The notes beneath the pieces are model-generated. The model searched no databases. It worked only from the letters and a program-made list of their open reading frames with translations, and was not told the DNA's origin. Position numbers and translations under genes: made by a program. Below are positions 10,040 to 64,000 of a DNA stretch of 64,000 bases, piece after piece. Every line of letters begins with the position of its first letter. Within the stretch, counting starts at the first letter, position 1. The stretch is from Chitinophagales bacterium. Lineage in GTDB: Bacteria; Bacteroidota; Bacteroidia; Chitinophagales; Saprospiraceae. The stretch is from the NCBI GenBank assembly GCA_038323375.1, contig JBBQGV010000015.1:974-64973 (forward strand), in the 5' to 3' direction.

Positions 10040-10169
10040 TAGCCCCCCAACCCCTCCTTCGACTGCCGCTCAGGCGGCAAAAGGGGGAGTTGTCACGATA
10101 GAGGTAACACCTTTTAGAAAGGTGTCACCTCAATTAATCAAAAACTTACAATCAATTAGAATAACCGTT

Positions 10170-11537: not shown

Positions 11538-11538
11538 T

Positions 11539-14500: not shown

Positions 14501-14961
14501 CCATCATCATGACCGGGGTCGGGATTTTTGCCCTTTCGGGAATTGTGATCCGAAACGGGATTCTGCTGCTGGAATTTGCGGACGTGTTGCAACAACGCGG
14601 CGTCCCATTCCGGGAAGCCATCATCGAAGCCGGTACCACCAGGATCACGCCGGTATTCCTGACGGCCATCTGTTCCATCGCAGGGTTGATTCCGTTAGCC
14701 ATCGGCTTGAATATGAGTTTCTCCAGCCTGCTGACCACCGGGCATGCACATTTTTACCTCGGCGGCGACAACGTTGCGTTCTGGGGCCCACTGGCGTGGA
14801 CGATGATTTTTGGTCTGATTGTAGCCACCTTCCTGACGTTGCTGGTGGTGCCTTGTATGCTGTATGCTTATGAAAGCTTCCGCAAAGGGGTATCGAACGT
14901 GCTCGGCCGTAGCCTTGTACGCAAGAAAGAACCGCAGGTAGAAGAATACCTATCAGAATAA
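11539..14961 (+). CDS. efflux RND transporter permease (AcrB/AcrD/AcrF family)
   Basis: 1140-aa ORF with a 12-TM layout, two large periplasmic loops and conserved RND motifs (VDDAIVVIEN). Confidence 0.95.
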   Translation: MDFLKHIKEFKPTSWSINNKTSVYIFTILITLTGLSIFISIPKEQFPDVVIPTIFVSTIYPEGANPEDIEKLITKPIENQLKSINGVKRVTSRSVPNLSLVTVEFNTDVETAEAKQKVSDAVDKAKNDLPTDLDQDPQIQEVDISEQPIMQVNIVGDLPLTQLNKYAKDLEDKIEGLKEITRVDVIGAPKREIQVNIDLYKMQMSGFSFSDIESAIAGQNVNISAGELRINELRRTLRVIGEFKNMSDIENIMVRSFRGNAAFLRDIATVTDGFEEKQDFARLDGKAVITLSVIKRAGQNLIGASEKIVAITDEYQRTKLPPGAGITITGDTADQTKVQLNDLINTVILGFLFVFFILLFFMGLESAFFVALAVPLSTMLAFLFMPSLGFTLNIMVLFSLLLALGIIVDDAIVVIENTHRIFHQHPEIDIKTAAKAAAGEVFAPVLAGTLTTIAPFFPLLFWPGIAGKFMKFLPMTLIITLFASLFVAFIMNPVFAVDTMKREDAVRKSKFRRTLRPMAIFGVLALISYLAGSLLMGNLAMVLVFSVPLYIFIIQPVAEGFQLGAWPAFIRGYRNVLNFLVNRRGMPYVAIFSTVVLLFLSIGLFVASNPKVEFFPEGQPNFAFVYCKLPVGTDASVTDSLTKLIEKKVYEVIGQNNPNVKSVITNVGIGAGDPMDPDRVVTPHKSKVAVAFVPFEKRRDFNTAETLNKIRENIKGIPGAEISVEKEPSGPPVGKPITVEIGGDDYETLAGIQTEVINKIAAAGIEGIEDLRSDLVRNKPEILIKVDVPKAQADGLSSAQIVLDIRKALFGSEASKFRDAEEDEDTPIMVRLDPVYRDRLEDLMNMEIAFMDMGSGMFKQVPISAYATIEYTTTFTGINRKGFRRVVTLGSNVLGGYNANEIVGQINQVISTLDLPEGYDVKMTGEQEDQAETTGFLGSAFLGALALMFLIMVTQFNSGSKPFIIFSTVLFSLIGVFLGHAITGMTMSIIMTGVGIFALSGIVIRNGILLLEFADVLQQRGVPFREAIIEAGTTRITPVFLTAICSIAGLIPLAIGLNMSFSSLLTTGHAHFYLGGDNVAFWGPLAWTMIFGLIVATFLTLLVVPCMLYAYESFRKGVSNVLGRSLVRKKEPQVEEYLSE

Positions 14962-45216: not shown

Positions 45217-45217
45217 A

Positions 45218-45486
45218 CGCTTTGTTTCGCGGGCTTCGTTTCGCACGCTTCGTTTCGCACGCTTTGTTTCGCACGCTTTGTTTCGCGGGCTTCAGTCCGC
45301 TTTGTTCCACACGCTTTGTTTCGCGGGCTTCAGTCCGCTTTGTTTCGCACGCTTTGTTTCGCGGGCTTTGTTTCGCGGGCTTCAGTCCGCTTTGTTTCGC
45401 ACGCTTCGTTTCGCACGCTTTGTTTCGCGGGCTTCAGTCCGCTTTGTTTCGCACGCTTCGTTTCGCACGCTTCAGTCCGCTTTGTT
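45218..45486. repeat. degenerate 12-14-nt tandem array built from REP-2 half-sites (GCTTYGTTTCGCRS / GCTTCAGTCCGC), minus orientation
   Basis: About 20 consecutive units begin 2 nt upstream of the Roc-CHAT start codon. Confidence 0.8.
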
Positions 45487-49220: not shown

Positions 49221-50137
49221 ATGCTGCTTCAATTTTCAGTTCGGAATTTTAGAACCTTCAAAGACAAAGCCTCTTTGAGCCTGATTGCTTCTAATTATGA
49301 CAAAGAGACTAGAGCAAGGGATTAGTTAGGAATAATGCCTTGTTACTCTCCGTTGCTGCGCAATTTAATGATAACATTTCCGAAAACGTTATTACCTGGT
49401 TTAACAGCTTAAAAACCATTTCAGGGCTAAGGGAAGAAGAGTATCAAGGCTATACAATGAATAGAACTCAAGATTCCCAATACAAAGATAAAATACTTGA
49501 TTTGCTTAAGTTCGCAGACATAGGGATTCATGATATAAAGCTCAAAATGCTTAATATTGATCAACTCCCCAAAGATATGCCCGATGAATTAAAACAATTA
49601 TTAACCAAAATAGCCAGAGAAAATGAAACTGAAATTTTTTCTGATATTTTAACTTCCCATAAAAAATTTGATGGATCAAAAAAATATGTCGGAGATACTA
49701 TATTGTCTTTAATTGACGATGAATCCTCCGGTACACGAAAATTTTTTGCTTTAACAGGGCTTATTTTAGACTCTATTGAAAACGGGCATACCTTAATTGT
49801 TGATGAACTGGATGCCAAACTGCATCCAAATTTAGTCTGTGAGATTGTTGCTCTTTTCAACTCTGGAAAATCCAATGCCAATAATGCACAACTCATTTTC
49901 AATACGCACGATACGAATCTCTTAAGCTCAGGTTTATTTAGGAGAGACCAAATCTGGTTTACAGAAAAAGATAAATTTGGAGCAGCAAAGTTGTATTCCA
50001 TGGCAGATTTTAAATCTGATGAGGTAAGGAAAAATGAAGCATTTGAGGAAACCTACCTTAGAGGAAAATATGGAGCTGTTCCTTTTTTGACGCACTTTGA
50101 TGAATTGACACTACAGAAACCTATTCCTGCAAAATGA
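49221..50137 (+). pseudogene. AAA_21-type ATPase (RloA/abortive-infection-like) with an internal deletion removing the Walker A region
   Basis: 49221-49325 encodes MLLQFSVRNFRTFKDKASLSLIASNYDKE... and then stops. ORF 49340-50137 carries the distal half (DESSGTRKFF, Walker B LIVDELDAKLHP, IFNTHD, RRDQIWFTEKD). No GxxGxGKS is present. Confidence 0.65.
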
Positions 50138-50534
50138 AAAACAAACAAGCAGATCAAATTGCGGCCAAAAAAAGACATCATGTTCAATTAAAAGAGAAAC
50201 GAAGAAGCGAACCTTTGCTGGAAAGAAATGGATCATTCTCCATCTTGAGGATCATTAGGGAGGCGGGATGAACAGAAGTGATTATGATGCTAAAATCAAC
50301 AACCTTTTAAGACCTTATAACCTTGTTTACGATGGAAAGAATAGTAAAATCATCACAGATGATTTTTTTGATCTGCTTGATGGCGTAGATGAAAAAACGA
50401 ATAAAGAGAGAAAGCTTTTAGCAATCAAGCGGGCTAAAAGGACTTATGATTTGTTTGATCATACAAATCCGGCAAGTGAAGAATCCTCAACGACTGTATT
50501 CAGGCTCGTTGAAGAATTATTGAAATATATTTAA
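50134..50534 (+). pseudogene. RloB-like (Toprim-type partner) remnant
   Basis: The start overlaps the ATPase stop (ATGA). A KWIILHLEDH-like motif is out of frame. Only a C-terminal 88-aa ORF (50268-50534) remains intact. Confidence 0.4.
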
Positions 50535-50987: not shown

Positions 50988-51881
50988 ATGATACCGAACT
51001 TCAATTTTCAAAAAAAGAGACTGACGCTGCCTGATCAAACGACCGTGGCTTACTTAGATACCGGGCACGATGCGGCTAAGCCTACCCTCGTCATGGTGCA
51101 TGGCTTAGGCAACAATGCTTCTGTTTGGCTCAGGCTGATGGCGCAAATTCAGGGTCAGTACCGCTGTATTGCCTTAGATTTGCCTGCTCATGGAGATTCG
51201 CAAGCCTGCACCCAAGCGTGTGGAATTAATTATTTTTCAGCAACCGTTGAGGGTCTTATTGAAGGCTTACAATTAGGCCAGGTGATGCTCATGGGCCACT
51301 CTATGGGTGGGTTGGTTTCGATCAAAACTATTTTGCGAAAGCCCACAGTCGTCAAGCAGTGCATTTTACTTGCCCCTGCTGGTTTTGAAACCTTTACGCT
51401 CAAGGAAAAAGCCTGGTTAAAAGCCATTTATGCGGTATGGATGCTCAAAAAGATGAGTGCAGCACGTATGGAACAGCAAACCAGAGAAAGTTTTTTCCGA
51501 TTCCCGCCTGATTTTGAGTTTGCCGTACAGGAAATTATCGCCATTCGCGAATCTCCGGAGGCATTCGAGGCGTACTGCGAAACGCTGTCTTTGTGCATGA
51601 ACAGCCTGCTTAATGAGTCGGTTTTTGATACCCTTTCCACCATTAGTCTGCCGTGCACTGTATTTTTTGGCATAGAAGACCTGACCATTCCCAACAAAGT
51701 CCTTCATCCGAACCTCACAGCCATCGAAGTAGCCGAGCAGGGGACGCGGAAAATTCCCAATGCCACCCTGCACTTGATTCCTGAATGCGGCCATACCCTC
51801 CAATGGGAGGCAGCTGATCAGATTGCTGATTTTTTACTAAATTTGGTTAGCTACTCTTCTTCCGCAGGTTCCGGACGCTGA
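50988..51881 (+). CDS. alpha/beta-fold hydrolase
   Basis: 297-aa ORF. HGLGNN oxyanion region, GHSMGG nucleophile elbow and a C-terminal CGH. Confidence 0.85.
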   Translation: MIPNFNFQKKRLTLPDQTTVAYLDTGHDAAKPTLVMVHGLGNNASVWLRLMAQIQGQYRCIALDLPAHGDSQACTQACGINYFSATVEGLIEGLQLGQVMLMGHSMGGLVSIKTILRKPTVVKQCILLAPAGFETFTLKEKAWLKAIYAVWMLKKMSAARMEQQTRESFFRFPPDFEFAVQEIIAIRESPEAFEAYCETLSLCMNSLLNESVFDTLSTISLPCTVFFGIEDLTIPNKVLHPNLTAIEVAEQGTRKIPNATLHLIPECGHTLQWEAADQIADFLLNLVSYSSSAGSGR

Positions 51882-53052
51882 CCTCTTCCCAAGAACGGCA
51901 ACCGGCTAATCCCAGGGTCAGGTCAATGTCTGCCAACAAATTCGTGATGACCTCGCGAACGCCTGCTTCCCCGCCTACCGCCAGCGCTAAGGCATAAGGC
52001 CGTGCCACCAGTACCGCCTTTGCGCCTAAGGCCATCGCTTTGAATACGTCTGCGCCACGTCGGATGCCGCTGTCGAACAAGACGGTCAGTTCATCCCCGA
52101 CGGCATTGGCAATTTCCGGCAATACCACCAATGAGCCTACCGCACCATCTACCTGCCTTCCGCCATGATTGGAAACTACGATGCCATCCACGCCATAATC
52201 CAACGCTTTTCGGGCATCGTCTATGTGCTGAATGCCTTTGAGTATGATGGGCATCCGGGTGCAATTCCGGATAACGGACAAGTCGTTCCAAGTTAGGCCC
52301 GGCCCGGTAAATACCTTCGTAAAATGGCGGATGGCTTTGAATTTATTTTGCTCAGGGTCGCCGCCTACGGCCTCCCGGAATACCGGATCGCCGAAGTAAT
52401 TGGCCAAGCCGTGGCCGTGCAAAAATGGCAGGTATCCCAGCTGAATATCACGTTCGCGCCAAGCCAAAACCGGGGTATCAAGAGTCACCACTAAGGCCGA
52501 ATACCCGGCCTCTTCTGCCCTCCGAATGACACTCCTTGTAAAATCGTGGTCGCGCCCCCAATACAACTGAAACCAATGTGGGTTTTCTGCGTTTTCCCGG
52601 GCGATGTCTTCCATAGGCATAGATGACACGTTGCTAACCACTTGTGGCACCTTCATGGAACGCGCAGCACGGGCAACCGCCAATTCAGCTTCCGGGTGTG
52701 CAATGGACAATACACCTACCGGCCCGAGTAATAAGGGAGAAGGCAAGCGCTGTCCAAACAGTGTAACGCCCATATCTGCATTAGAAATATCCACCAACAT
52801 ACGTGGCACAATTTGCCAATCATCCAGCGCCTCCTGATTGTTGCGCATAGTTGTTTCCCCGCCAGCGCCGCCTGCAATGTAGGCAAAGGCTTCGGGTGTC
52901 ATTTTTTCCGAGGCTTCTTGAAGTAAGTCTTCATAAGAAACCGGAAATTTATTTTTCCGGTTGAACAGGCCATTCAGGTAAATGTGCATCTGTCGCTCTA
53001 CACCAAAGGAAGGGCGCTCCATTTGTAAGGTATCACCGGTTCTATTTTTCAT
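51847..53052 (-). CDS. FMN-dependent alpha-hydroxy-acid oxidase/dehydrogenase (lactate oxidase/LldD-like)
   Basis: 401-aa ORF with VVSNHGGRQVDG, ILKGI and DSGIRRGADVFKA motifs. Confidence 0.85.
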   Translation of the reverse strand: MKNRTGDTLQMERPSFGVERQMHIYLNGLFNRKNKFPVSYEDLLQEASEKMTPEAFAYIAGGAGGETTMRNNQEALDDWQIVPRMLVDISNADMGVTLFGQRLPSPLLLGPVGVLSIAHPEAELAVARAARSMKVPQVVSNVSSMPMEDIARENAENPHWFQLYWGRDHDFTRSVIRRAEEAGYSALVVTLDTPVLAWRERDIQLGYLPFLHGHGLANYFGDPVFREAVGGDPEQNKFKAIRHFTKVFTGPGLTWNDLSVIRNCTRMPIILKGIQHIDDARKALDYGVDGIVVSNHGGRQVDGAVGSLVVLPEIANAVGDELTVLFDSGIRRGADVFKAMALGAKAVLVARPYALALAVGGEAGVREVITNLLADIDLTLGLAGCRSWEEVSVRNLRKKSS

Positions 53053-53054
53053 AA

Positions 53055-54347
53055 TTAAAATAGTTTATTTAAATAAAAAACTGCCTGAATAAAATTAATT
53101 TCTAATTGATCAAAATGGTATCGTTTGCCTCCTGTTTGCTCGTTTTGCAGCGTGAGGCCGGGGAAATAGCGAACATTGGTGCGCAGTAAAAAGGATTGGA
53201 GGCGATTGGGGCGGATGTCCCATCCAAAAATATACCCCAATTTCCACTGGTCTTCTTTAGCCTGAAAAGCGGTGCCAGGGTTTAGTGCATCCCCGCCAAT
53301 GGCCTCCAACCGTTCCCAGCCCGGGCTTATTCCAATAAAAGGAACAAACCCCTTGTAATCAAACAAAGATTTGCAAAGGTCTAATGACAAGGCTTTGCGG
53401 CGAAACTCCAGCGTACTGCCATAAGCGCTAATTTCACTGTTGATGCTCCGGTAAGACAGGTTGAGGTGCGCGTCTAATTTGTGGTGATAATAGCCTGCGC
53501 CCCATTCTATAAAAACATTCCCCCCCCTGTGTCGGCCCATATAAGGTGCTACATCGGTTGATTCCTTCAGGAAAAAAGTAGAAGAAACGCCCACTGCTGC
53601 TGAAAAGGTATTGAGTTTACCTGCTTTCCCGAGGCGATCCTCCAGCTCTTTGGTACGGCCATTGAGCAAGTCTTCTTCTGCCGAAACCGTCGTGTCCAGT
53701 AAATAACGGTATCCTATTCTGAATTGAAGTGGGGGCAAACGGAGTGTCGAGGCAGCAACCCGATCGAAATAATAAGTAGCCTTGTTGTTGTACATCCACG
53801 TGGCTGACAATTCAAAATAGTGCTTTTTATTGGCAATGGTGCTTACCCCGGCATGAATTGGGTAGCTCACTTTATTGTAATTGGAGCCGTCGTCGCTTTT
53901 GTCGTCTGTTTTACCGAGGTATCTAAAATTCAACGAATTGAAAGACATGCCCACAAAAGGGCTAATTTTTGCGGTATAAGGCGTTTTCCACAAAAAATAT
54001 CGGAAACCGGTTTCTGTGCCGGTAGCATAATCCGTTGTTCGTGTGCCTGATTGCAAATTGAGGATGGGAATGTTGATAAAAAAATCCACTTTCCCCCAAA
54101 AATGCATACCGGAAATATTCAGGTGCGTCGCCGAACGCGGTGCAAAAGAAAGTTTGTCAGGCTCGCTGCCTGCCACACCCGACACCTTCGTTTCCCATGC
54201 GGGGGCATATCCGGTATAGATCCCGAAGCCACTCTGGGCAAAACGGTGTTGGGTTTTAGGAGAAATAACCTCCGAGTTTTCTTGTCCAATGATTATGGTA
54301 TTGGACACAAACAGCAGGCAGCAGAGCGAGACAAATAGACGCATCAT
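53055..54347 (-). CDS. outer-membrane beta-barrel protein, function unknown
   Basis: 430-aa ORF with a signal peptide, alternating aromatic/hydrophilic strands and a terminal ...YLNKLF. It starts 8 nt after the KS-like gene and ends 2 nt before the oxidase gene. Confidence 0.55.
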   Translation of the reverse strand: MMRLFVSLCCLLFVSNTIIIGQENSEVISPKTQHRFAQSGFGIYTGYAPAWETKVSGVAGSEPDKLSFAPRSATHLNISGMHFWGKVDFFINIPILNLQSGTRTTDYATGTETGFRYFLWKTPYTAKISPFVGMSFNSLNFRYLGKTDDKSDDGSNYNKVSYPIHAGVSTIANKKHYFELSATWMYNNKATYYFDRVAASTLRLPPLQFRIGYRYLLDTTVSAEEDLLNGRTKELEDRLGKAGKLNTFSAAVGVSSTFFLKESTDVAPYMGRHRGGNVFIEWGAGYYHHKLDAHLNLSYRSINSEISAYGSTLEFRRKALSLDLCKSLFDYKGFVPFIGISPGWERLEAIGGDALNPGTAFQAKEDQWKLGYIFGWDIRPNRLQSFLLRTNVRYFPGLTLQNEQTGGKRYHFDQLEINFIQAVFYLNKLF

Positions 54348-54355
54348 GATTGAAT

Positions 54356-55621
54356 TTAATTATATCGACTTAAAATAATGGAAGTTGTATTTCCACCAGC
54401 CTGGATGGAGTTGACCATCACCTTTTCCAAAGGTACGTGTTCCAATGTTTCTCCCGGAATGGTCACCCTGGCATTGGTGGGGTTATTAAAATAACTACCA
54501 GCCCAGCCCGTTCCAAGCACTTCTTCGTTTTGCATCATCAGCGCAGCCGCTACCAGCGAAGTTTGGCCCGAAGCCCCAAAAGTTTCCCCAATAAATGGTT
54601 TTATTGTGGTGTAGTAGAGGTCTTCATTTTTCCAGATTTCATCAATTGCCTTTCCTTCGTATTCGTTGTACTGCCAAGGCAGGCAAGAAGCCCCCACGAC
54701 ACAGTCGATATCCGAAGGCGCAAGCCCTGACAATTTTAAGCTTTCCTCCATTACGTGTTTGAAGTCGGCCTCATTTTTTTCAAAGAAGAAATTGTCGTGA
54801 GCGCCGTCAAAGCCGGTATTGTAATTGAGTACTTCTGCATAAATATCGGCACCTCTTTCCAGTGCATGGTCTAATTTTTCCAGAACCACAAAGGCCGCAG
54901 CTTCGCCAATAACGGTTTTTCGCTCGTTTTTTGCATAGTCGAGGGCACGTTTGAGGGCCGTTTCCGCAGTTGTATCGGCATTCTCCGAAGGGCAGTCAAG
55001 CAAATATCCGCTTTCGTTATAAAAAATCAAATGAATGTCCCTTATTTCATCAAAACCACCACAAATAATGATGTCGGCATCGTCATTTTTCAGGAGGTCG
55101 AAGCCGTAGCAAACGCTGTCTTCCCCCATCAGCAAAGAGCTTGAACCCCTGAATTTATAGTACCGCGTGGTGTCGCCCAAGACTGTATTCGACACCGTTT
55201 TTGTGAAGTCGAAAGGACTGGCTTTGCGCGGACCTTCGCGAAACAGCTTTTCCAGATAGGCTTCAACGGCTGCATTGGCCGCCATTGACGTATTCAGAAT
55301 CAGGCCAATCCGATCTGGTGAAAGCTGGTTGCCTTCCAGTTTGGCACTTTTGACTGCCGTTTGGCACCCCAACATGGCGAGTTGGGAGTACCGGAGTGGA
55401 AATGGCGCTTTCAAATCGGCAAAATATTCTTTGATGTTGATTTCCGGACACGGATAAAAATATGTCTGATCCAGCCCTGATTCGTTCCAGGTGTTTTTGA
55501 TAACGACCCCACTTTGTCCGGACTTGAGGCTTTGGTAATAAGTTTCAGCGCCAATGCCGATGCTGGAGACCATGCCTACTCCTGTGATAACGATGCGTTC
55601 ATTTTGTGGTATAGATTTCAT
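54356..55621 (-). CDS. ketosynthase-like protein lacking catalytic residues (chain-length-factor-like)
   Basis: The 421-aa thiolase-fold ORF is colinear with the KS at 62693-63898. The active-site TACASG position reads SLLMGED, and the two His motifs (HGTAT, GHALGAAG) are replaced (GASCLPW, GETFGASG). Confidence 0.75.
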   Translation of the reverse strand: MKSIPQNERIVITGVGMVSSIGIGAETYYQSLKSGQSGVVIKNTWNESGLDQTYFYPCPEINIKEYFADLKAPFPLRYSQLAMLGCQTAVKSAKLEGNQLSPDRIGLILNTSMAANAAVEAYLEKLFREGPRKASPFDFTKTVSNTVLGDTTRYYKFRGSSSLLMGEDSVCYGFDLLKNDDADIIICGGFDEIRDIHLIFYNESGYLLDCPSENADTTAETALKRALDYAKNERKTVIGEAAAFVVLEKLDHALERGADIYAEVLNYNTGFDGAHDNFFFEKNEADFKHVMEESLKLSGLAPSDIDCVVGASCLPWQYNEYEGKAIDEIWKNEDLYYTTIKPFIGETFGASGQTSLVAAALMMQNEEVLGTGWAGSYFNNPTNARVTIPGETLEHVPLEKVMVNSIQAGGNTTSIILSRYN

Positions 55622-55626
55622 AATAT

Positions 55627-56112
55627 TTAGCTAGGTTTGGTAAGGTGAACGGTAATATTTCCTTTAGCGACTACTTCGTTTTGTGCATCCAGTACTTTTC
55701 CGTCATATACCGAAAAGTCCATGAATTTTTGCTTAATGAATACAACTATTGTAAGCTCTGAATTCGGAAAAACCGGTTTAACAAAGGTGGTTTTATCAAT
55801 TTTAATGGCCCGGCCCATCATTTTTTTATCCGATATATTTTCTCCCGATGCAGTACCGATCTGGTTTTCGATCATTTCCATCCGGCCAAAAAGACCGCAT
55901 GTTTGGAACATCATTTCTACCAGAATAACCCCCGGCAGCATGGGATAACCCGGAAAATGGCCCTTAAAAAAAGGCATGTCGGCGTTTACCTGTGTTTTGG
56001 CGGTGAGCGAGACACCGGGTTCGTAGCTTACAATTTCGTCCACCAGCAACATGGGTGGGCGGTGTGGCAATAAAGTTGCCGGTTTGGGAAAAGTCAAGGT
56101 ATTCGTACTCAT
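55627..56112 (-). CDS. FabZ/FabA-like 3-hydroxyacyl-ACP dehydratase (hot-dog fold)
   Basis: 161-aa ORF with HFPGYPMLPGVILVEMMFQ. Confidence 0.8.
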   Translation of the reverse strand: MSTNTLTFPKPATLLPHRPPMLLVDEIVSYEPGVSLTAKTQVNADMPFFKGHFPGYPMLPGVILVEMMFQTCGLFGRMEMIENQIGTASGENISDKKMMGRAIKIDKTTFVKPVFPNSELTIVVFIKQKFMDFSVYDGKVLDAQNEVVAKGNITVHLTKPS

Positions 56113-56885
56113 ATTGTTTGTAATATTTTTGTAGATACTGAAATTTGATCTAATATAGAACGAGACAAATCTGCTTCTGAAAAATGTCGAACATCCATTA
56201 AAAATTGATTTTTACTGGCTACCCAGCATAAATAATCCCTGTCTATTTGTACCGATTTAAGTATGTATTCCTTGCGGCTGGTCAAGGCTGCGTCCATATC
56301 CCGAAGCCCTTTGCCCGAGCATTTCACCTGTGCTTCTAATGCTGTCCAGTCTTCTATGTTGATGGAATCTGCGTGCGTAGTCAGCCCTTTGACGGCTTGT
56401 CCGAAGCGCAAAAAACTGCTTCGGTCTTTTTTGCACTGTACGTCAATGCCTACAATGCCTTCGTAGTTGATGGCACAAGCAATCAAATCCCGGGAATGAG
56501 ACAGGTTAAAGTCAAAATCCCCTACCCGGATAAATGGCCGTCCAAGTGCATCGTATTGCATCGGAAAACTGGCAGGCGATGCATCGGGATATACTTCGCG
56601 GAGGCCTTCGTACACCAACAATTTACTCAGGATCGATTTTAGCCGGTCAGCATGTTTTAAGTAGCGACTCCACCGATTCCGGATGGCTTCCGGAAACAAA
56701 GTCGCGTATGCCAGTAACAGATCCTGAAAAGAATTACTTTTTTCATAATAAGCATAACATAATAAATTCGCCAAAGGTAACTTGCCGTTGCTCTTCAATG
56801 AGTGCCGTACAATTGGCAAGAGACCGGTGCTTGTCGCGAAATACCTGAACGAAGTCTTTCTGTACAATTTCTGAATATTCTGCAA
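56109..56885 (-). CDS. Sfp-type 4'-phosphopantetheinyl transferase
   Basis: 258-aa ORF. FNLSHSRDL, GIDVQ, WTALEAQVKCSGKG. It overlaps the dehydratase start by 4 nt. Confidence 0.75.
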   Translation of the reverse strand: MQNIQKLYRKTSFRYFATSTGLLPIVRHSLKSNGKLPLANLLCYAYYEKSNSFQDLLLAYATLFPEAIRNRWSRYLKHADRLKSILSKLLVYEGLREVYPDASPASFPMQYDALGRPFIRVGDFDFNLSHSRDLIACAINYEGIVGIDVQCKKDRSSFLRFGQAVKGLTTHADSINIEDWTALEAQVKCSGKGLRDMDAALTSRKEYILKSVQIDRDYLCWVASKNQFLMDVRHFSEADLSRSILDQISVSTKILQTI

Positions 56886-56915
56886 GTTTGTAGCTATAAG
56901 TATCCATTGATCTAT

Positions 56916-58127
56916 CTATTTATGAATTTCCAAAACGCCTATATTCAGTAGGTCTCTAATAAAAATTGATTCAAAGCCTTCTTCTTCCATCTCTTGTTTG
57001 AGCTTTATTGACATTTTAAAAAGGCTTTTAAAGCAAGGCTCTGTCAGTTGAAAACACTGGTATGTGCGCTTGTTCAATAAAAAACAGTCATTTTCAATCA
57101 TAAATAAGCCAAAATTGGTTTTATTAAACTTCAATTGGGTATTAGCTGGTAAATCTGCATAATTAGCGGTGCTAATGTCTCGGGTAGTACTCACTTCCGG
57201 CGGTAAATATTTGTGCAGATAAAGCCATGTTTCCCATTGATCGTAGTATTGTATCAGATATTTTTCCAGCTCACTGTATAACTTGCGGGTTACTTCCGGG
57301 ATGTATTCTTTGGGAGCTCCGGCCCACTCTTTGGGGTCTATTTTAGGCAAAAGCAAGACTTTTGGAGGTTTTCTTTCCTCATCCGGATAATAAGAAATCA
57401 CGGGAATAATCGGGCGTTTGTTCATCCAGGAAATGGCTGCAATCCCTTTTCGGGAATTGATTTCCTGGCCAAAAAATGGAATTCTTAAATGAAACTGTTC
57501 TGACTTGTGGAAAATACCGCCCCCACCAGTATTGCCGTCAATGTAGGCAATAATGGATTTGCCTTCATAAAGGCATTTTGAAAGCGTCATGGCAATATTA
57601 GGCGACTCTGCGTTCAAAAGATCAAAAAACGCAGTTACTCCAAATGCTTTGTGTATCTCGGCCACCTTTTTCCGGATGCTGTCTCCCTGACGATGGTAGG
57701 TGTTTTCATCTACAATCAAAACAAAATCAAGACCTTTACTTGCCACAATGCCGATAACCGACCGATAAGACCCCAGGTGGTAGGTACAAATAACCGCCGG
57801 GAAATTTTCGGGTGCTAAAGCAGCTTCTGCACCGACTACGTCCAAGCGGTCAATTAATTCCGGCATCCCGGTTTCTTCATTGAGCAGGGCACGGCCGTAA
57901 AGCAGCTTCAAATAAATATCTTCGTATGCTGACGCTGGTATGTGGGGCAAAAATCGTTCCAGATTTGCCGTCAGAAATGTAAAATCCTTTAGTTGTAGCT
58001 GATCGAATTTCCGCTGTTCCCGCAATTGGATTTCTTGCCTCAACCCTTTGTAGCTCTCCACGTGTGGAAGGACGTTCGGGCTTTTATTTGAACCAGATTG
58101 AAATACAGGTATCGTTTCGACTGTCAT
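56916..58127 (-). CDS. LpxL/HtrB-type (lipid A biosynthesis-like) acyltransferase with an extra C-terminal domain of about 90 aa
   Basis: 403-aa ORF. YHLGSY (Hx4-type motif), a FFGQEINSRKGIAAISWMNKRPIIPV block and QWETWLYLHKY. The tail (FGLFMIENDCFLLNKRTYQCFQLTEP...FIRDLLNIGVLE) resembles a PqqD-like peptide-binding fold. Judged by eye. Confidence 0.55.
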   Translation of the reverse strand: MTVETIPVFQSGSNKSPNVLPHVESYKGLRQEIQLREQRKFDQLQLKDFTFLTANLERFLPHIPASAYEDIYLKLLYGRALLNEETGMPELIDRLDVVGAEAALAPENFPAVICTYHLGSYRSVIGIVASKGLDFVLIVDENTYHRQGDSIRKKVAEIHKAFGVTAFFDLLNAESPNIAMTLSKCLYEGKSIIAYIDGNTGGGGIFHKSEQFHLRIPFFGQEINSRKGIAAISWMNKRPIIPVISYYPDEERKPPKVLLLPKIDPKEWAGAPKEYIPEVTRKLYSELEKYLIQYYDQWETWLYLHKYLPPEVSTTRDISTANYADLPANTQLKFNKTNFGLFMIENDCFLLNKRTYQCFQLTEPCFKSLFKMSIKLKQEMEEEGFESIFIRDLLNIGVLEIHK

Positions 58128-58141
58128 ACGTATTGCTATTT

Positions 58142-59443
58142 TTAATTTAAAACTTCCGTAGCCAACTGCTCTCTTCCTACCTCCTCGCAGTTAAAATTAT
58201 TGAGTGTAAAAAGATTAATGATGTTCAATATCAGCTCAACAGAGGTTTGCATAGTACGATCCTGCATATCCATATCCGGGTTCACCTCAACCAGGTCAAT
58301 GCCAATGATTCGGCGGTCCGTCAGCACCAATTGCAGCAGTTGAATCAGCTCCGAAAGATCCAGGCCATTGGCAACGGGGGTAGCGGTAGCAGGCGCAACA
58401 ACAGGATCTAGTACATCAATGTCAATGGTCAAATAGACTTGTGCGTCCATTGGAATGAAAGACAAGTCGAGTTCATCATGGATGGATTTTTTCAGGTCGC
58501 TGCACCAGAAAACATGCTGTTTCGAATTATGGGGCCGCCCCATGAGGTTAAATATCCCCCTGATTCCCATCTGATAAATGCCTTTTACTTTCGAAATTTC
58601 GAGGCACCGGCTGGCAAAATTGCCGTGATGGTGTACTTTTTCAGCGTGATTAAGACTGTCATACTTAGAGGTATAGGTATCCGTATGGGCGTCCATGTGT
58701 ACGATGTAAATGTCATCAAACACCGCCGATGCAGCTTTTACAATCGGATAGGTTACAGAGTGGTCGCCTCCAAGAAAAAACGGAATATTCCCTTGTTGGA
58801 AAATCTGGAGCGCTGTTTTTTCTATTTTCCGGTAGATATAGGATTTAGATTCGTGGATGCTGACAAATAAATTGCCCAGATCTTTGATTAAATCCTTTTG
58901 CAAAAGTTCGAAAAAACAAGAGTTACTTGAGTCAATGCCTACCGCTTCAAGGCTGTAATTCCCAGCGCTTGCTGCATCTAAGTGCAACTTGTATTCGTTG
59001 GTGTACTCCCGGAGTTTTTCCGGAAAATGCGCACAGCCCACTGATTTGGGATTGCCCCCGCCATAAGGAATTCCGACAAAGCATAAATTGGCAAAATGCG
59101 GGTTTGTTTCGTCGTTCAATCCAAAAAGCGTATGTTTTAGTCTTGTCAGTATAACGAGCTGGTCTTCGAGAATGTCATTCTGAAATACGAGCCCGCGACT
59201 TACAAAAGAAGACAATGCTTGTTGTAGATCACCTGTGGGGTACTGTGGGAAAGCGGCCATAAGACCTTCAAACGTTTTGGGGATTTCCAGAAACCGCAAA
59301 ATGCTCATTGCTGTTTCTTTTACCTGAAATACCTTCCCCGACAGGGTGTTGTACAATTTATGTGCTGCATCTTCTCCTTTTTCGCGCTCTATGAGCAAGT
59401 AAGGCGAAATGATGTAGTTGGTAATTACTTTATTGTTTTCCAT
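58142..59443 (-). CDS. arginase/agmatinase-family ureohydrolase fused to an N-terminal PqqD/RRE-like domain (candidate peptide arginase)
   Basis: 433-aa ORF. C-terminal GGDHSVTYP, HMDAHTD, TIDIDVLDP and DLVEVNP Mn-binding motifs. The N-terminal 90 aa (LYNTLSGKVFQVKETAMSILRFLEIPKTFEGLM...LSSFVSRGLV) are RRE-like. Confidence 0.8.
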   Translation of the reverse strand: MENNKVITNYIISPYLLIEREKGEDAAHKLYNTLSGKVFQVKETAMSILRFLEIPKTFEGLMAAFPQYPTGDLQQALSSFVSRGLVFQNDILEDQLVILTRLKHTLFGLNDETNPHFANLCFVGIPYGGGNPKSVGCAHFPEKLREYTNEYKLHLDAASAGNYSLEAVGIDSSNSCFFELLQKDLIKDLGNLFVSIHESKSYIYRKIEKTALQIFQQGNIPFFLGGDHSVTYPIVKAASAVFDDIYIVHMDAHTDTYTSKYDSLNHAEKVHHHGNFASRCLEISKVKGIYQMGIRGIFNLMGRPHNSKQHVFWCSDLKKSIHDELDLSFIPMDAQVYLTIDIDVLDPVVAPATATPVANGLDLSELIQLLQLVLTDRRIIGIDLVEVNPDMDMQDRTMQTSVELILNIINLFTLNNFNCEEVGREQLATEVLN

Positions 59444-60731
59444 CGCGTCTATTTCTTATCAGGTTTTTAATACTATTCCGCACAATGCCTGAATTATGTT
59501 GATAACGCTTGTAAAAAATAAATGAGAATATGGTCGTAGCAAGTGCTGTTTTTCCCATTGATTCAATGGCACAGACAGAAAAATCGAGCTGATAAATGTT
59601 GTAAAAAACTTGTTTCCATGCATAAAATGCTTGTCCGATAAATTTGATAACGACATAAGCAATATATCCCCAAAATACGTAGCTGCAAATAGAATAAATT
59701 GCCAAAAAAGGGTTCTTTACATTCACTAACTGCCGCGTTCTTTCAGAAACCTGGAATGGCAGGCTGGGAAAAATGCGCTTTAGGAACAAAGTCCACCAAG
59801 CATCTGACTGCAACCGCAGGTTCGGAAGCTTAAATAAATCGCTATAAATCCAGTAGCCGTCAAACCGGAAGAAGGGGTTAAAATTAATGAATATGGTTAC
59901 TGTATTGATAACGATCAGACTCCTGAGTATACTGATGGTTTCCATATCGTAGGAGTTTTTAACCCAGTAAATCAACCCAAGATTAATCAATAACTGGAAA
60001 AATATTCCTCCAAAATTCACAATAATGCGTTTGAGGCGGCTGAGTTTCCAGGTTTCAGTTACATCCGTATATAATACTGGAAAAATAAAATAGAAGCCAA
60101 AACCGATACTTTTGGGTGGCGCTTTGAACAAGTATGAGGAGGCCGCATGCCCCAGTTCATGGATAAAAAGAATGAAAATTGCTACCGGGTAATAGATAAA
60201 AATATGCCCCAAATTTTTTAGGCACTCGGTACCCGAACTGGCAAATGTCCCGCCGGCTGCCGCTGCATCGTTGTATTGCGAAAATTGCTGGATATAATAA
60301 TAATTCAAACCCGCACCCGCCAACAGAAGCGTAAAAAAAGGTATCGGATAAAAAAAGTATTTCAGTATTTCAAGGAGCCATTTAAGCTGCTCAAACCGAA
60401 AAACATCCCAATGGCCAGTAAACCCGGACAGCATTCTGTCGGTTTTGTTTTTTTCCAGGCTTTCATCGTGTATGACCTCACCTGCTTCATTAAATATTTT
60501 AAGAGGTTTAATTTTTTCTTCGATAATTTGGGCAACGGTTTCTTCTGTAAATTCATATTGACCACGAGACCAGTTGTTTAGGCTAACCGTAATTTCCGGT
60601 TTTGTCTTTTTCTCTGTCAGTTGATCTATGATGATACGCAACAATTCTCCTATGTAATAATTGGTGCCATTGATCTGCAACAGGTACTGTTTATTGTCGT
60701 TACCGGTTTCTACTTCTTGTATGGTGTACAT
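59430..60731 (-). CDS. polytopic membrane zinc metalloprotease (M50/site-2-protease-like, HELGH)
   Basis: 433-aa ORF with multiple TM helices and HELGHAASSY inside a helix. Its soluble N-terminal domain of about 110 aa could bind peptide. Confidence 0.65.
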   Translation of the reverse strand: MYTIQEVETGNDNKQYLLQINGTNYYIGELLRIIIDQLTEKKTKPEITVSLNNWSRGQYEFTEETVAQIIEEKIKPLKIFNEAGEVIHDESLEKNKTDRMLSGFTGHWDVFRFEQLKWLLEILKYFFYPIPFFTLLLAGAGLNYYYIQQFSQYNDAAAAGGTFASSGTECLKNLGHIFIYYPVAIFILFIHELGHAASSYLFKAPPKSIGFGFYFIFPVLYTDVTETWKLSRLKRIIVNFGGIFFQLLINLGLIYWVKNSYDMETISILRSLIVINTVTIFINFNPFFRFDGYWIYSDLFKLPNLRLQSDAWWTLFLKRIFPSLPFQVSERTRQLVNVKNPFLAIYSICSYVFWGYIAYVVIKFIGQAFYAWKQVFYNIYQLDFSVCAIESMGKTALATTIFSFIFYKRYQHNSGIVRNSIKNLIRNRRDGKQ

Positions 60732-60939: not shown

Positions 60940-61080
60940 CTATCCAGCTGCGGGTGGCGCGGCGGGTGTTTTCACTGTGTTGCCACTGCAGCGTGCGGTA
61001 TCCACAGCCGCTACCGTCATTTCAAAACGGCCTTCCAATTCAACTACGGACAATGCATCTTTGATTTCAAAATTGTTCAT
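60940..61080 (-). CDS. candidate RiPP precursor peptide, 46 aa (variant core)
   Basis: Manual translation: MNNFEIKDALSVVELEGRFEMTVAAVDTARCSGNTVKTPAAPPAAG. It shares the conserved 31-aa N-terminal region with the three genes at 61752-62308. Confidence 0.6.
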   Translation of the reverse strand: MNNFEIKDALSVVELEGRFEMTVAAVDTARCSGNTVKTPAAPPAAG

Positions 61081-61161
61081 AATAAGTAAATTTTGGTAAT
61101 TAGAAAATTAGAAAATAAAAATCTCAGTCATTAGCAGTAAACAAAAGTCGGTCATACTAAG

Positions 61162-61323
61162 GGTCGCTGAAATAATAACTGTTCACTTTTCCAGGAGGTC
61201 TTTTGCTCCTACTCTGCGTTGGAGAACCACCTCCCTTAGCTATGGCTAAGGTCGGGAACCCCCGCCTCGGTTAGCCACAAAATGCCTTGCCTGGCAAAAG
61301 CGACACTTGTTAATTCAGCGCCC
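61162..61323. mobile_element. MITE-B copy 1 (162 bp), TIR GGTCGCTGAAATAATAAC / GGGCGCTGAATTAACAAG, TSD CTAAG
   Basis: CTAAG occurs at 61157-61161 and 61324-61328. It is near-identical in length and sequence to copy 2. Confidence 0.75.
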
Positions 61324-61473
61324 CTAAGGAATCAAACAGGATAAAGATGTATTTACCAGATCCATTCTATTGATGTGTATCATTTATAAGTTAGATACCA
61401 TTCGTGAGTTGCCAATCGGTTACAAGTATCTTTATTCCTGCTTTTTTCAGCAATTACTGGCTGTACTTTTCAA

Positions 61474-61574
61474 TTAGTTAGCCAAGGTCCTGGACTCATC
61501 GGAAACCGATTTGTTGATCTTGCTGTCGTTGCAACGTGCAGTATCCACGGCAGCTACGGTCAGTTCAAAACGAT
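61474..61574 (-). pseudogene. 5'-truncated precursor-peptide gene
   Basis: It encodes only ...RFELTVAAVDTARCNDSKINKSVSDESRTLAN. The N-terminal half and spacer are replaced by the junction ...AAAACGAT|ATAATTACGCTTAG next to MITE-B copy 2. Confidence 0.6.
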
Positions 61575-61588
61575 ATAATTACGCTTAG

Positions 61589-61750
61589 GGTCACTGAAAT
61601 AATAACTGTCCACTTTTCCAGGAGACCTTTTGCGCCTACCCTTCATTGAAGAACCGCCTCCCTTAGCTTTGGCAAAGGTCGTGAACCCCCGCCTTGATTA
61701 GCCACAAAATGCCTTGCCTGGCAAAAGCGACACTTATTAATTCAGCGCCC
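61589..61750. mobile_element. MITE-B copy 2 (162 bp), TSD CTTAG
   Basis: CTTAG occurs at 61584-61588 and 61751-61755. The right-hand TSD overlaps the stop codon of the 61752-61898 precursor gene. Confidence 0.75.
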
Positions 61751-61751
61751 C

Positions 61752-61898
61752 TTAGTTGGCCTGAGCAGGTTCAGAAGAGGCCTTCACATCTGCTTTGTTG
61801 TCGTTGCAACGTGCAGTGTCTACAGCGGCTACGGTCAGTTCAAAACGATTTTCGAGTTCTACCACTGACAGGGCATCTTTAGTGTCAAAATTGCTCAT
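61752..61898 (-). CDS. candidate RiPP precursor peptide, 48 aa
   Basis: Manual translation: MSNFDTKDALSVVELENRFELTVAAVDTARCNDNKADVKASSEPAQAN. Confidence 0.65.
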   Translation of the reverse strand: MSNFDTKDALSVVELENRFELTVAAVDTARCNDNKADVKASSEPAQAN

Positions 61899-61956
61899 GA
61901 TAAAAAGATTGATTGATTAAAAAATAGAATTAAGAGACGGCTTAAAATAATTACGC

Positions 61957-62103
61957 TCAGTTGGCCTGAGCAGGCTCAGAAGAGACCTTCACATCTGCTT
62001 TGTTGTCGCTGCACCGTGCAGTGTCCACAGCGGCTACGGTCAGTTCAAAACGATTTTCGAGTTCTACCACTGACAGGGCATCCTTAGTGTCAAAATTGCT
62101 CAT
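61957..62103 (-). CDS. candidate RiPP precursor peptide, 48 aa
   Basis: Manual translation: MSNFDTKDALSVVELENRFELTVAAVDTARCSDNKADVKVSSEPAQAN. Confidence 0.65.
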   Translation of the reverse strand: MSNFDTKDALSVVELENRFELTVAAVDTARCSDNKADVKVSSEPAQAN

Positions 62104-62161
62104 GATAAAAAGATTGATTGGTTAAAAAATAGAATTAAGAAATGGCTCAAAATGATTACGC

Positions 62162-62308
62162 TTAGTTGGCTTGAGCAGGCTCAGAAGAAGCCTTCACATC
62201 TGCTTTGTTGCCATCGCAGCGCGCAGTATCAACAGCGGCCACGGTAAGTTCAAAACGCTCTTCGAGTTCTACTGAGGACAGCGCATCTTTGATTTGAAAA
62301 GTTGACAT
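62162..62308 (-). CDS. candidate RiPP precursor peptide, 48 aa
   Basis: Manual translation: MSTFQIKDALSSVELEERFELTVAAVDTARCDGNKADVKASSEPAQAN. Confidence 0.65.
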   Translation of the reverse strand: MSTFQIKDALSSVELEERFELTVAAVDTARCDGNKADVKASSEPAQAN

Positions 62309-62387: not shown

Positions 62388-62669
62388 TTAGTCTTCTGCT
62401 TCCACCAGCAGGTTGCGCTGAATCATCGCGCTCAGTGTCTCTACGTTCTGGAAGGATTCTTCGTTAAATTCCGTAGGAATGATTCCGAATTCTTCGCCGA
62501 GGCGGGTAGAGATTTCAAGGACAGCGAGGGAATCCTGAATAATTCCGGGATCTTCATCAGTCCCGAAAAACGGCGCATCGTTTTTGATGTCTGCTGCCGT
62601 AATGTCTTCCAATTCCAATACATCAATAATGCATTGTTTTACTTTTTCCTGAATTGCATTGAGTTCCAT
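62388..62669 (-). CDS. acyl carrier protein
   Basis: 93-aa acidic ORF with a DSL phosphopantetheine-attachment motif (IIQDSLAVLEI). Confidence 0.85.
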   Translation of the reverse strand: MELNAIQEKVKQCIIDVLELEDITAADIKNDAPFFGTDEDPGIIQDSLAVLEISTRLGEEFGIIPTEFNEESFQNVETLSAMIQRNLLVEAED

Positions 62670-62692: not shown

Positions 62693-63898
62693 TTAATTAA
62701 AATTTCTGATTGCTACCGAGGCCATATTCCCTGAAAACCCGAAGGAGTTGGACAGTGCCAGGTTAATTTTATAGTCAATGGCTTTTCCTTCTACCAACCG
62801 AATGTTATCAGGAGTGACAATGGACTCTTTCACGTTAATGGAAGGGGGGACGAAGTTTTTGTAAACCCCCAAAGTTGTAGCGACAAACTCTACACTGCCC
62901 GCTGCCCCCAGCGCATGACCAATCAGTGATTTGGTAGAGCTGACATACACCGGGTGCCCATCTACCAATTGTTCGATGGCCCTGATCTCCATCTTGTCGT
63001 TCGCCAGCGTAGCGGTACCGTGTGCATTGATATAATCTACCTGACTGGGCGTAGCACCGGACATTTTAAGTGCATTGAACATGGCCTGCTTGGCAAAAAT
63101 GCCATCCGGGTGAGGCGCTGTGGCGTGATAAGCTTCGTTGACAATCGAATATCCTGAAACTTCTGCCAGAATCGGCGCATTCCTTTTTTGAGCCGACTCC
63201 AGGCTTTCCATTACTACGTAGGCAGCAGCATCGCCAAGGTTCAAGCCATCCCGGCCTTTATCGAAGGGCTGGCAAGCACCTTTCGACAGGGCAAACAGCG
63301 AGTTAAATCCGCTGTAAGTCAGGTAAGTAAATATATCAACCCCACCTGCAATCATACAATCTACCCGGTTACTCCGGATCAGATCGAAGGCTCTTCCGAT
63401 CGAGTTGGTGCCCGAAGCACAAGCTGTGGAGATCGTAGATAATGGGCCGCGTATGCCAAAATGGGCTGCGATTCGGGAAGTGATATTGGGCGTGATGTGC
63501 AACAACAACGCATAATCCCGCTCTTCGCCTTTAATTTTGTTTTTCACCCAATCCATAAAGGGATAACTTCCTCCAACCGACGTGCCAAGACAAAGCCCCA
63601 CGCGTCTGGGATCGGTGCTACTCAAGTCTAAATTTGCCCTTTCAAGCGCCTCACCGATCGCCCGCACCGACAATTCGCCAAGGATCGTAACGTCTTTTTC
63701 ACGGGCCGCTTCGTAAATACCCTGGTCAATGGTACATCCCTGGCGGCTTCTGAAGAACTCGTCAGACAAGTCAAAGCGTTGAGTAGAAATGTCTTTGAGG
63801 CCAGATTTGCCTTCACGCAGGTTTTGTTCAAATTCATCCAGATTATTGCCGATGGAGCAAATGACGCCCAAACCGGTCACAACTACTTTAGATGCCAT
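62693..63898 (-). CDS. beta-ketoacyl-ACP synthase (FabF/KAS II-like), catalytically complete
   Basis: 401-aa ORF with the Cys-His-His triad context STACASGTNS, NAHGTATLAND and GHALGAAG. Confidence 0.9.
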   Translation of the reverse strand: MASKVVVTGLGVICSIGNNLDEFEQNLREGKSGLKDISTQRFDLSDEFFRSRQGCTIDQGIYEAAREKDVTILGELSVRAIGEALERANLDLSSTDPRRVGLCLGTSVGGSYPFMDWVKNKIKGEERDYALLLHITPNITSRIAAHFGIRGPLSTISTACASGTNSIGRAFDLIRSNRVDCMIAGGVDIFTYLTYSGFNSLFALSKGACQPFDKGRDGLNLGDAAAYVVMESLESAQKRNAPILAEVSGYSIVNEAYHATAPHPDGIFAKQAMFNALKMSGATPSQVDYINAHGTATLANDKMEIRAIEQLVDGHPVYVSSTKSLIGHALGAAGSVEFVATTLGVYKNFVPPSINVKESIVTPDNIRLVEGKAIDYKINLALSNSFGFSGNMASVAIRNFN

Positions 63899-64000
63899 AA
63901 AACTATTTTTTTAGACTACTTGTCAATTAATCGCTGTTCTCAAAATTAGCCAGGAAGTATCTATCTTATTTTTTGCTATTTAAACCCTGGTTTTATACGC

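Follow-up and report, generated by a model that had tools for sequence, protein, structure and literature searches.

An inactive ketosynthase homologue and its likely partner in a Bacteroidota operon with ribosomal precursor-like genes

The window analysed here is a stretch of 64,000 nucleotides from a Saprospiraceae genome (Chitinophagales bacterium, GCA_038323375.1), an assembly of 5.9 Mb in 202 contigs in which the window occupies positions 974-64973 of contig C15. Towards its end it carries a ketosynthase (KS) homologue devoid of the catalytic triad, called hereafter the dead KS, together with a FabZ-type 3-hydroxyacyl-acyl carrier protein dehydratase (DH) and an Sfp-type 4'-phosphopantetheinyl transferase (PPTase). 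The genes of these three proteins are spaced by 2-8 nt from each other and from their neighbours or overlap with them, and they form part of a long operon on the minus strand that recurs in many Bacteroidota. An active KS, an acyl carrier protein (ACP) and an array of small precursor-like open reading frames (ORFs) belong to the same operon, which is likely to couple a private acyl-chain factory to ribosomal precursor peptides.

Gene content of the operon

All genes of the operon lie on the minus strand and are listed here in the direction of transcription. The upstream-most member, beyond the window end, encodes a SusC-N-like protein of 735 aa; after it come an unknown protein of 210 aa, another of 253 aa and a FabG-like ketoreductase (KR) of 255 aa. 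The KR gene occupies the window-equivalent positions 63993-64760 (L002:1367-2134), of which the last 8 nt (63993-64000) are inside the window. The active KS comes next (401 aa, 62693-63898), with the residues C160, H293, K323 and H328, and precedes an ACP of 93 aa (62388-62669) that displays a DSL serine motif and a PP-binding score of 21.8 bits for a cut-off of 20.8.

Four precursor-like ORFs of 46-48 aa were taken from the ORF list (60940-61080, 61752-61898, 61957-62103 and 62162-62308). The array that they form (60940-62308) is flanked within the operon by the ACP and protease genes, and it travels with the acyl module in relatives. A fifth, truncated ORF (61474-61548) starts within the conserved DTARC region, between intact copies. 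Downstream of the array, a 433-aa protein resembling HExxH intramembrane metalloproteases (59430-60731) scores 24.9 bits against Peptidase_M50 (cut-off 27.2) and 77.3 against the daptide HExxH model (cut-off 300). The following gene (58142-59443) encodes an arginase-family enzyme, also of 433 aa, which reaches 178.6 bits against Pfam Arginase over residues 119-408 and 143.4 bits against the agmatinase model, below the cut-off of 174.3.

The next product is a protein of 403 aa (56916-58127) in which a fold search with the predicted model recognised an LpxM/PatA-like acyltransferase with a C-terminal winged helix, the latter similar to the recognition element (RRE) of RiPPs, peptides made on the ribosome and modified after translation. 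It is followed by a deletion scar (56764-56907), in which 48 codons of an adenylate-forming (ANL) ligase were recognised by their similarity to the ligase of the related locus L004. The PPTase core (56109-56774) has lost its own ATG and counts 221 aa if the TTG at 56774 is the start. The DH (161 aa, 55627-56112) and the dead KS (421 aa, 54356-55621) come after it. The operon closes with the genes of an unknown 430-aa protein and of a dehydrogenase dependent on flavin mononucleotide, both described further on.

The ketosynthase pair

The dead KS has retained the KS fold without the triad. Its two halves exceed the cut-offs of the Pfam ketoacyl-synt N and C domains (45.2 and 44.1 bits), and its AlphaFold model (pLDDT 88.9, pTM 0.91) superimposes on FabF of T. 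thermophilus (1j3n) with Z 48.3 and an rmsd of 2.4 for 394 aligned residues. When aligned with B. subtilis FabF (4ls5), the segment of the active-site Cys falls in a gap, the first catalytic His is replaced by Ala and the second by Glu. An earlier note on this DNA had described a 421-aa homologue that lost the Cys and both His, and had proposed the alignment with FabF as a check. The description is correct and the loss lies far outside what chance would give.

The loss is shared by the whole family. A MAFFT alignment was built with protein P0001, 26 family clusters and two more distant dead proteins, giving 29 dead rows, together with three active KS; P0003, identical to P0001, was left out. 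In none of the 29 dead rows are the four columns of the Cys loop occupied, so that Gln in place of the active-site Cys, a feature of KS-beta proteins of the actinorhodin type, is absent. The column of the first His contains Ala in 16 rows, Ser in 8, Gly in 4 and Glu in 1, and in every row the second His is changed to Glu and the catalytic-site Lys is kept. The possibility that the dead KS is a decaying pseudogene was ruled out: the reading frames are intact, and GET and LPWQ, the altered sites, have themselves been conserved in Saprospiraceae, Cytophagales-type, Chitinophaga and Flavobacterium loci.

Among the 8000 candidates scored in a collection search for relatives of the dead KS, 265 proteins reached E <= 1e-10. 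The family itself comprises 27 clusters with 278-958 bits and 38-100% identity, after which the next score falls to 147 bits, and relatives were found in metagenome-assembled genomes (MAGs) of Saprospiraceae, Lewinella and Neolewinella. Compared with L004, the nonsynonymous divergence (dN) amounts to 0.128 for the dead KS and 0.083 for the active KS; synonymous divergence is saturated or undefined, so that dN alone is usable. Both proteins stay below the cut-off of the FabF model TIGR03150 (493.75), with 149.7 bits for the dead KS and 334.4 bits for the active one. The KS-family genes of the genome number only three: the two of the cluster and a housekeeping FabF on contig C25 (598.8 bits). 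The statement of the note that the KS at 62693-63898 keeps its catalytic residues is borne out as well, since C160, H293, K323 and H328 are invariant in 22 of 22 orthologues.

The genomic neighbourhood was compared in a locus scan that returned 69 loci. Twenty-six were kept as family members (L003-L027 and L029), and L028 and L030-L071 were dropped as ordinary KS genes sharing the search pattern. The family loci span 10 kb on each side and some contigs end inside them, so that the counts of precursor-like arrays and acyltransferases given below are lower bounds. The DH gene is directly upstream of the dead KS in 26/26 loci; in 23 loci the KR and KS genes are both found and adjoin each other, the three others (L003, L008 and L014) ending at contig edges. 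The uninterrupted order KR-KS-DH-dead KS is found in L011, L013, L015, L016 and L018, and the Chitinophaga/Flavobacterium group shows the order DH-dead KS-KR-KS-ACP. One module thus occurs in several arrangements, and the split placement of the two KS genes in the window is one of them.

In a FastTree phylogeny of 97 KS rows, with local SH-like supports, all the dead KS sequences group with the C-terminal halves of natural fusion proteins (57 rows, support 97). The 22 cluster KS are monophyletic (100), with the N-terminal halves of the same kind of proteins as their sister group (96), and matching sub-clades are seen in the KS and dead-KS parts of the tree. The fusions were also encountered in a profile search of 1.84 billion representatives that gave 48,237 matches at E <= 0.001, of which the best 150 were inspected. 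Half of these 150 (75) have two KS domains over about 800 aa; in 56 of the 75, the N-terminal domain carries the Cys and the two His and the C-terminal domain none of the three. Among the 75 single-domain proteins, 52 are devoid of the Cys and the first His and carry the Lys and the Glu. These figures indicate that the change of the second His to Glu marks a large and old class of dead KS partners and not a local accident. The fused active-KS/dead-KS proteins lie within entries P0130-P0268 of the representative library.

A complex of the KS and the dead KS was predicted with an ipSAE of 0.95, the best control giving 0.00, with contacts that agree at 98% or more and a partner pLDDT of at least 90. 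The mark used for this score is reached by 116 of 157 solved complexes and by 2 of 215 mismatched pairs. The best sequence matches of the two proteins in the PDB are two chains of one entry, 9s5h, with the KS matching chain B (266.4 bits) and the dead KS chain C (112.8 bits), which also has Glu at the position of the second His. Co-occurrence, adjacency in relatives, congruent trees, natural fusions, the predicted complex and the two-chain matches all speak for the KS-alpha/KS-beta-style pair that had been suggested for this locus. The dead KS would then be an inactive partner, of the chain-length factor (CLF) type, of the KS at 62693-63898, forming a heterodimer with it and setting chain length; this is considered likely, jointly with the other parts of the explanation developed below.

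Reduction, priming and transfer

According to the earlier note, the window contains a dehydratase and neither a KR nor an enoyl reductase (ER). The KR went unseen because its gene starts where the window ends: it lies just past it, on the same strand as the KS and 94 nt upstream of it. The protein scores 205.3 bits against Pfam adh_short_C2 and 62.3 against KR, exceeds the cut-off of the FabG subfamily model NF009466 (225.7 for 222) and contains the motifs TGGTRGIG and YSASK. The part of the statement that concerns the ER stands as far as was searched. No member of an ER family was found among the 9 ORFs upstream of the window to the contig end, among the 30 other large ORFs of the window or among 67 extra ORFs of at least 120 aa inside related loci. 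The extra genes that recur in the latter code for alpha/beta hydrolases or type II thioesterases, DUF2141 and DUF2306 proteins, TonB-dependent/SusC-like outer-membrane proteins and LytTR two-component pairs.

The note had named as refuting its view the case in which the missing reductases lie immediately upstream and the set is a standard fatty acid synthase (FAS) paralogue. A KR does lie there, and the set is not a complete FAS paralogue because the ER is still missing. Discrete KR and DH genes beside a KS/CLF pair, with no ER found in the cluster, correspond to the gene content by which highly reducing type II polyketide synthases (PKSs) are recognised.

One candidate for a hidden ER is the flavin mononucleotide (FMN)-dependent enzyme of 401 aa encoded at 51847-53052 on the minus strand. 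It was rejected as a general ER, as it belongs to the alpha-hydroxy-acid dehydrogenase/oxidase family (PF01070, 420 bits) and sits inside the cluster in only 7 loci, all of the Saprospiraceae type. Its score against the model of the pre-mycofactocin synthase MftD is 228.8, for a cut-off of 470.85.

The DH was correctly recognised as FabZ-like from the outset. It scores 71.7 bits against Pfam FabA (cut-off 23), and its catalytic His (GHFPG) and Glu (VEMM) align with those of 6n3p, an E. coli-type FabZ. Against the NCBIfam FabZ models NF000582 and TIGR01750, it reaches 89 and 86 bits, below the cut-offs of 113 and 155.15. Judged by these scores, the DH is a FabZ-like paralogue and not a FabZ equivalog.

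The PPTase was identified with a profile of 16 orthologues, which matches Sfp (4mrt/1qr0) with an E-value of 1.5e-19 and covers residues 9-226 of 4mrt; the single sequence is just under the Pfam cut-off (26.3 for 27). Its invariant residues are G78, P80, S92, G109, D111, W143, E147 and K151, of which D111, E147 and K151 belong to the Mg/CoA site. A second PPTase-like ORF is present in the genome, on contig C26. The private ACP and PPTase announced by the note are both real, though the PPTase does not extend to 56885 as had been assumed: the 258-aa TTG ORF that reaches this position consists of the 221-aa PPTase core and 37 residues of out-of-frame ligase remnant (56775-56885).

The origin of this remnant became apparent in the relatives, in which the PPTase gene is directly preceded by one for an AMP-binding ANL ligase of 465-503 aa. 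Of the 24 informative loci, 22 have this ligase gene and two, L017 and L026, are devoid of it, L003 and L008 not covering the site. A deletion of about 1.43 kb took the ligase gene and the ATG of the PPTase in the present genome. Only the first 48 ligase codons are kept, which are 72% identical to the first 50 residues of the AMP-binding protein (497 aa) encoded in L004. As seen in translation and in DNA alignment, ligase codon 48 is joined out of frame to PPTase codon 3 at an AATTT microhomology, and the ATG-AGT with which the PPTase of relatives begins has become TTG-GCG in the window copy. An in-frame TTG made at the junction (56774) could still start the 221-aa PPTase.

Public metagenome contigs were compared over positions 55600-58200 of the window. 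In runs X4 and X7, single contigs at least 99% alike cover both flanks and contain about 1427 extra nt at the junction, which means that an intact allele exists in the same population. In run X1, two contigs diverge into unlike sequence at 56764 and 56780. The deletion allele is known from the window assembly and from one low-depth contig of run X14 (713 nt, depth 4.2), colinear with the window across the junction, that may derive from the same sample. The window copy is probably impaired or using a different starter. Besides, L017, a Saprospiraceae MAG, contains a cluster naturally devoid of the ligase, with the acyltransferase and PPTase genes 89 nt apart, so that a ligase-free version also exists as an apparently orderly arrangement.

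The 403-aa protein provides the link to the peptides. Its model (pLDDT 84.2) matches LpxM 5knk with Z 20.9 (262 residues aligned, rmsd 4.8) and PatA 7ojt with Z 20.5 (232 residues, rmsd 3.0), the next match, PlsC, reaching only Z 9.4. Residues from about 320 to 403 resemble RiPP recognition elements, namely those of PqqD (5sxy, Z 6.5), TbiB1 with its leader (6.0) and MibB (6.9). As far as predicted structures can tell, the most direct indication that the peptides would be the destination of the chain is this lipid-type acyltransferase, equipped with an RRE and encoded between the acyl module and the genes for precursor processing. The coupling to ribosomal peptides put forward in the note is supported by this enzyme, encoded beside the precursor array.

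Variations of the module were noticed in single relatives. Proteins similar to the N-terminal part of LanB (Lant_dehydr_N), 862-878 aa long, are encoded inside the clusters L011 (12712-15348) and L018 (12502-15090), and by this similarity some family members may also dehydrate Ser and Thr of their peptides. In L020 and L025, from Flavobacteriaceae and Chitinophagaceae, two tandem ACP genes follow the KS.

Proposed pathway, its alternatives and further features of the window

In the proposed pathway, the KS/dead-KS pair would act with the KR, the DH, the private ACP and the PPTase to elongate an ACP-bound starter with malonyl units, the starter being loaded in relatives by the adenylate-forming ligase. 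In each round, the chain would be reduced and dehydrated without enoyl reduction, which would leave a 2-enoyl or polyenoyl chain, possibly a 3-hydroxy chain, on the ACP. The LpxM/PatA-like acyltransferase, with its RiPP recognition element, would then move this chain onto the precursor peptides. The module apparently serves an undescribed lipo-RiPP family of Bacteroidota. It is tempting to go further and to see in these clusters a class of ribosomal lipopeptides with a conjugated enoyl, polyene or aryl-polyene-like tail, built by a KS/CLF pair on a starter chosen by the ligase and attached by an RRE-guided acyltransferase of the LpxM/PatA type; this more precise version is put forward tentatively and is rather doubtful in its entirety.

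Several observations weigh against this explanation. The complex score may merely reflect likeness to solved KS dimers, all KS-fold proteins dimerising through the same face. Precursor-like arrays were detected by tblastn in at least 11 of the 26 family loci and the acyltransferase in at least 16, low figures though lower bounds. The 403-aa protein has no match in the PDB by sequence profile, and sequence-level membership of Pfam Lip_A_acyltrans (PF03279) was not found, the L004 orthologue giving an E-value of 0.19 only. PatA uses acyl-CoA, and the donor of the chain need not be an ACP. The ligase profile matches generic ANL enzymes, such as adenylation domains of nonribosomal peptide synthetases, oxalate-CoA ligase, MenE, dihydroxybenzoate-AMP ligase and 4-coumarate-CoA ligase, without singling out fatty-acyl-AMP ligases, and it does not specify the starter. 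With a housekeeping ER acting in trans, the chain could become saturated. Finally, the window copy, deprived of the ligase and of the PPTase ATG, may make nothing.

Among known systems, the highly reducing type II PKS of ishigamide likewise combines an active KS and an inactive KS-fold partner (Iga11/Iga12, PDB 6kxd-f) with discrete KR, DH and ACP and no ER, and the dead-KS model superimposes on chain A of 6kxf with Z 46.7 (389 residues aligned, rmsd 2.5). ApeO/ApeC of aryl-polyene synthesis are a further KS/CLF pair of this kind. Unlike in pairs of the Iga11/Iga12 type, the Cys loop is here deleted instead of substituted and the module resides within a ribosomal-peptide operon. Moreover, the dead KS is closer in sequence to FabF proteins (about 110 bits) than to CLF chains, none of which was among the best 60 of its 78 PDB sequence matches. 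The logic of the heterodimer is also shared with the KS-alpha/KS-beta of actinorhodin (1tqy), the active KS matching 1tqy_A at 163.2 bits. However, reduction and dehydration do not take place in every round of an aromatic type II PKS, and the Gln that replaces the active-site Cys in KS-beta has no counterpart in the dead KS.

A heterodimer was recently crystallised with its ACP from anammox bacteria (amxFabF2/amxFabFmut); according to the main text of the preprint, the Cys of the dead partner is changed to Val or Thr and its His to Asn, Glu or Cys (bioRxiv 10.64898/2026.05.19.726425). As here, the partner of a FabF-like KS is a dead homologue with replaced His residues, Glu being one of the replacements, and a private ACP and a FabZ are present. 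The anammox pair differs by its Cys substitution, where the loop is deleted in the present family, and by its adjacent genes, which that text assigns to ladderane lipids and not to peptides. Entry 9s5h is presumed to be this heterodimer, the main text giving no PDB code.

Lipolanthines and goadvionins are examples of lipidated RiPPs, and the known members of this group use GNAT-type acyltransferases. In contrast, the candidate transferase of the present operon is LpxM/PatA-like with an RRE and the chain would come from a private KS/CLF module. Selidamides (PMC8784127) are also ribosomal peptides with an acyl chain, and the arginase-family gene resembles in this respect the ornithine-forming selidamide pathways. 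No description was found in the literature of a KS/CLF pair in a ribosomal-peptide operon with an RRE-bearing lipid-A-type acyltransferase; most subscription journals were outside this search and absence is not proven. Another parallel is offered by the cispentacin genes AmcB-H, which likewise comprise an adenylating enzyme loading an ACP, a KS heterodimer and a FabZ-like partner. All scores against the Amc equivalog models are below cut-off, with 208.8 bits for KS-AmcF (cut-off 325), 111.3 for ligase-AmcH (370), 43.1 for DH-AmcE (140) and 16.7 for ACP-AmcB (80).

The same genes could be read as a FAS paralogue of identical architecture in which a housekeeping enoyl-ACP reductase acts, so that the chain on the peptides would be a fatty acyl group of the ordinary kind, saturated or 3-hydroxy and of set length. 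Both KS-fold proteins score best against FabF models (334.4 and 149.7 bits), the KR passes the FabG subfamily cut-off, the DH is FabZ-like and the genome has a housekeeping FabF on C25. Furthermore, chains B and C of 9s5h are annotated as 3-oxoacyl-ACP synthases, which fits the KS/CLF-like heterodimer of anammox fatty-acid synthesis as presented in the main text of the preprint (bioRxiv 10.64898/2026.05.19.726425). Nevertheless, all family loci have kept a KR and a DH of their own and a private ER was never found (0/67 extra ORFs), and whether a housekeeping ER uses the cluster ACP is not readable from sequence; this version is regarded as unlikely, while being the best placed of the alternatives. 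The sub-threshold matches of four proteins to AmcF, AmcH, AmcE and AmcB, and a ligase profile that resembles enzymes for small acids or aryl acids more than fatty-acyl-AMP ligases, would instead agree with a module that carries out a single special condensation, or a few, on a starter of unusual kind, such as a 2-oxo-acid or an aryl acid. The outcome would be a small cyclic or branched block, as in cispentacin or the coronafacic acid starter, and no lipid tail. Yet the four Amc scores are far under their cut-offs and under the FabF/FabZ scores of the same proteins, and the acceptor enzyme has the fold of a lipid acyltransferase, which makes such a block improbable.

Even less credit is given to a free membrane lipid or pigment, of flexirubin-like or aryl-polyene-like nature, made merely beside an unrelated array of peptide genes. 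Aryl-polyene clusters combine an ER-less KS/CLF pair with a KR, a DH, an adenylating enzyme, an LPLAT-type acyltransferase and a thioesterase, a gene content that the operon resembles, and TonB-dependent/SusC-like outer-membrane genes and alpha/beta hydrolases recur in the loci. Against a free product stand the position of the array, inside the operon between ACP and protease and moving with the module in relatives, and the RRE-like domain of the acyltransferase. The KR scores 214.3 bits against the flexirubin model FlxB (NF053542), below the cut-off of 340. When this model was run on the genome, the best match was the housekeeping FabG (260.8), the cluster KR scoring 213.9, with no true FlxB above 340, and true FlxB was found in 10 of 121 sampled Bacteroidota genomes. 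In 8 genomes, eleven KS ORFs were located at most 10 kb from FlxB; the C/H/K/H residues are intact in all of them, and none nests in the cluster-KS clade or in the dead-KS group of a FastTree phylogeny. A wider group of 33 rows, seen in this tree only, unites five of the 11 with the cluster KS and the N-terminal fusion halves. From the aryl-polyene logic invoked in the note, a resemblance is thus retained, which is functional and does not amount to family membership.

If the tentative, more precise version above is right, these clusters would represent a new enzymatic solution for the lipidation of RiPPs, with natural loss-of-function deletion variants circulating in the population. KS/CLF pairs are well known in polyketide synthesis and, very recently, in one fatty-acid pathway. 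If the proposed pathway holds, they would here offer a compact, genetically encoded route by which gene-encoded peptides receive an acyl chain that is defined and may be unsaturated, which would be of use in lipopeptide engineering. Culturable members of the family include Pseudarcicella hirudinis, Spirosoma (S. validum, S. terrae) and Chitinophaga (C. vietnamensis, C. silvisoli). In practice, the copy of the present genome, being a deletion variant, is the wrong one to clone.

Downstream of the dead KS, an unknown protein of 430 aa (53055-54347, minus strand) is possibly an outer-membrane beta-barrel, given weak matches to OMP_b-brl (E 0.017) and PorG (E 0.007), and is also found in loci L003-L006, L012 and L018. 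Beyond the FMN-dependent enzyme, a 297-aa alpha/beta hydrolase (50988-51881, Abhydrolase_1 74 bits) is encoded on the plus strand, convergent with the operon, and its orthologues adjoin the FMN enzyme in L003, L004, L007, L012 and L019. Further on the plus strand, an AAA_21 ATPase (49340-50137) matches the C-terminal half of the profile only and an 88-aa piece (50268-50534) matches the end of RloB; by their sequences, both resemble pieces of a disrupted OLD/RloB-type pair at the cluster edge.

Other features of the window are more distant. A minus-strand gene at 42376-45246 encodes a 957-aa protein with leucine-rich repeats, Roc GTPase, COR-A/COR-B and CHAT protease domains, that is, a bacterial ROCO protein fused to a caspase-like domain. 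Finally, an ordinary resistance-nodulation-division (RND) efflux operon is found on the plus strand at 8642-14958, with genes for an OEP protein, an HlyD-type adaptor and an AcrB-type pump, and several proteins sorted by the type IX secretion system (Por_Secre_tail) are encoded nearby.

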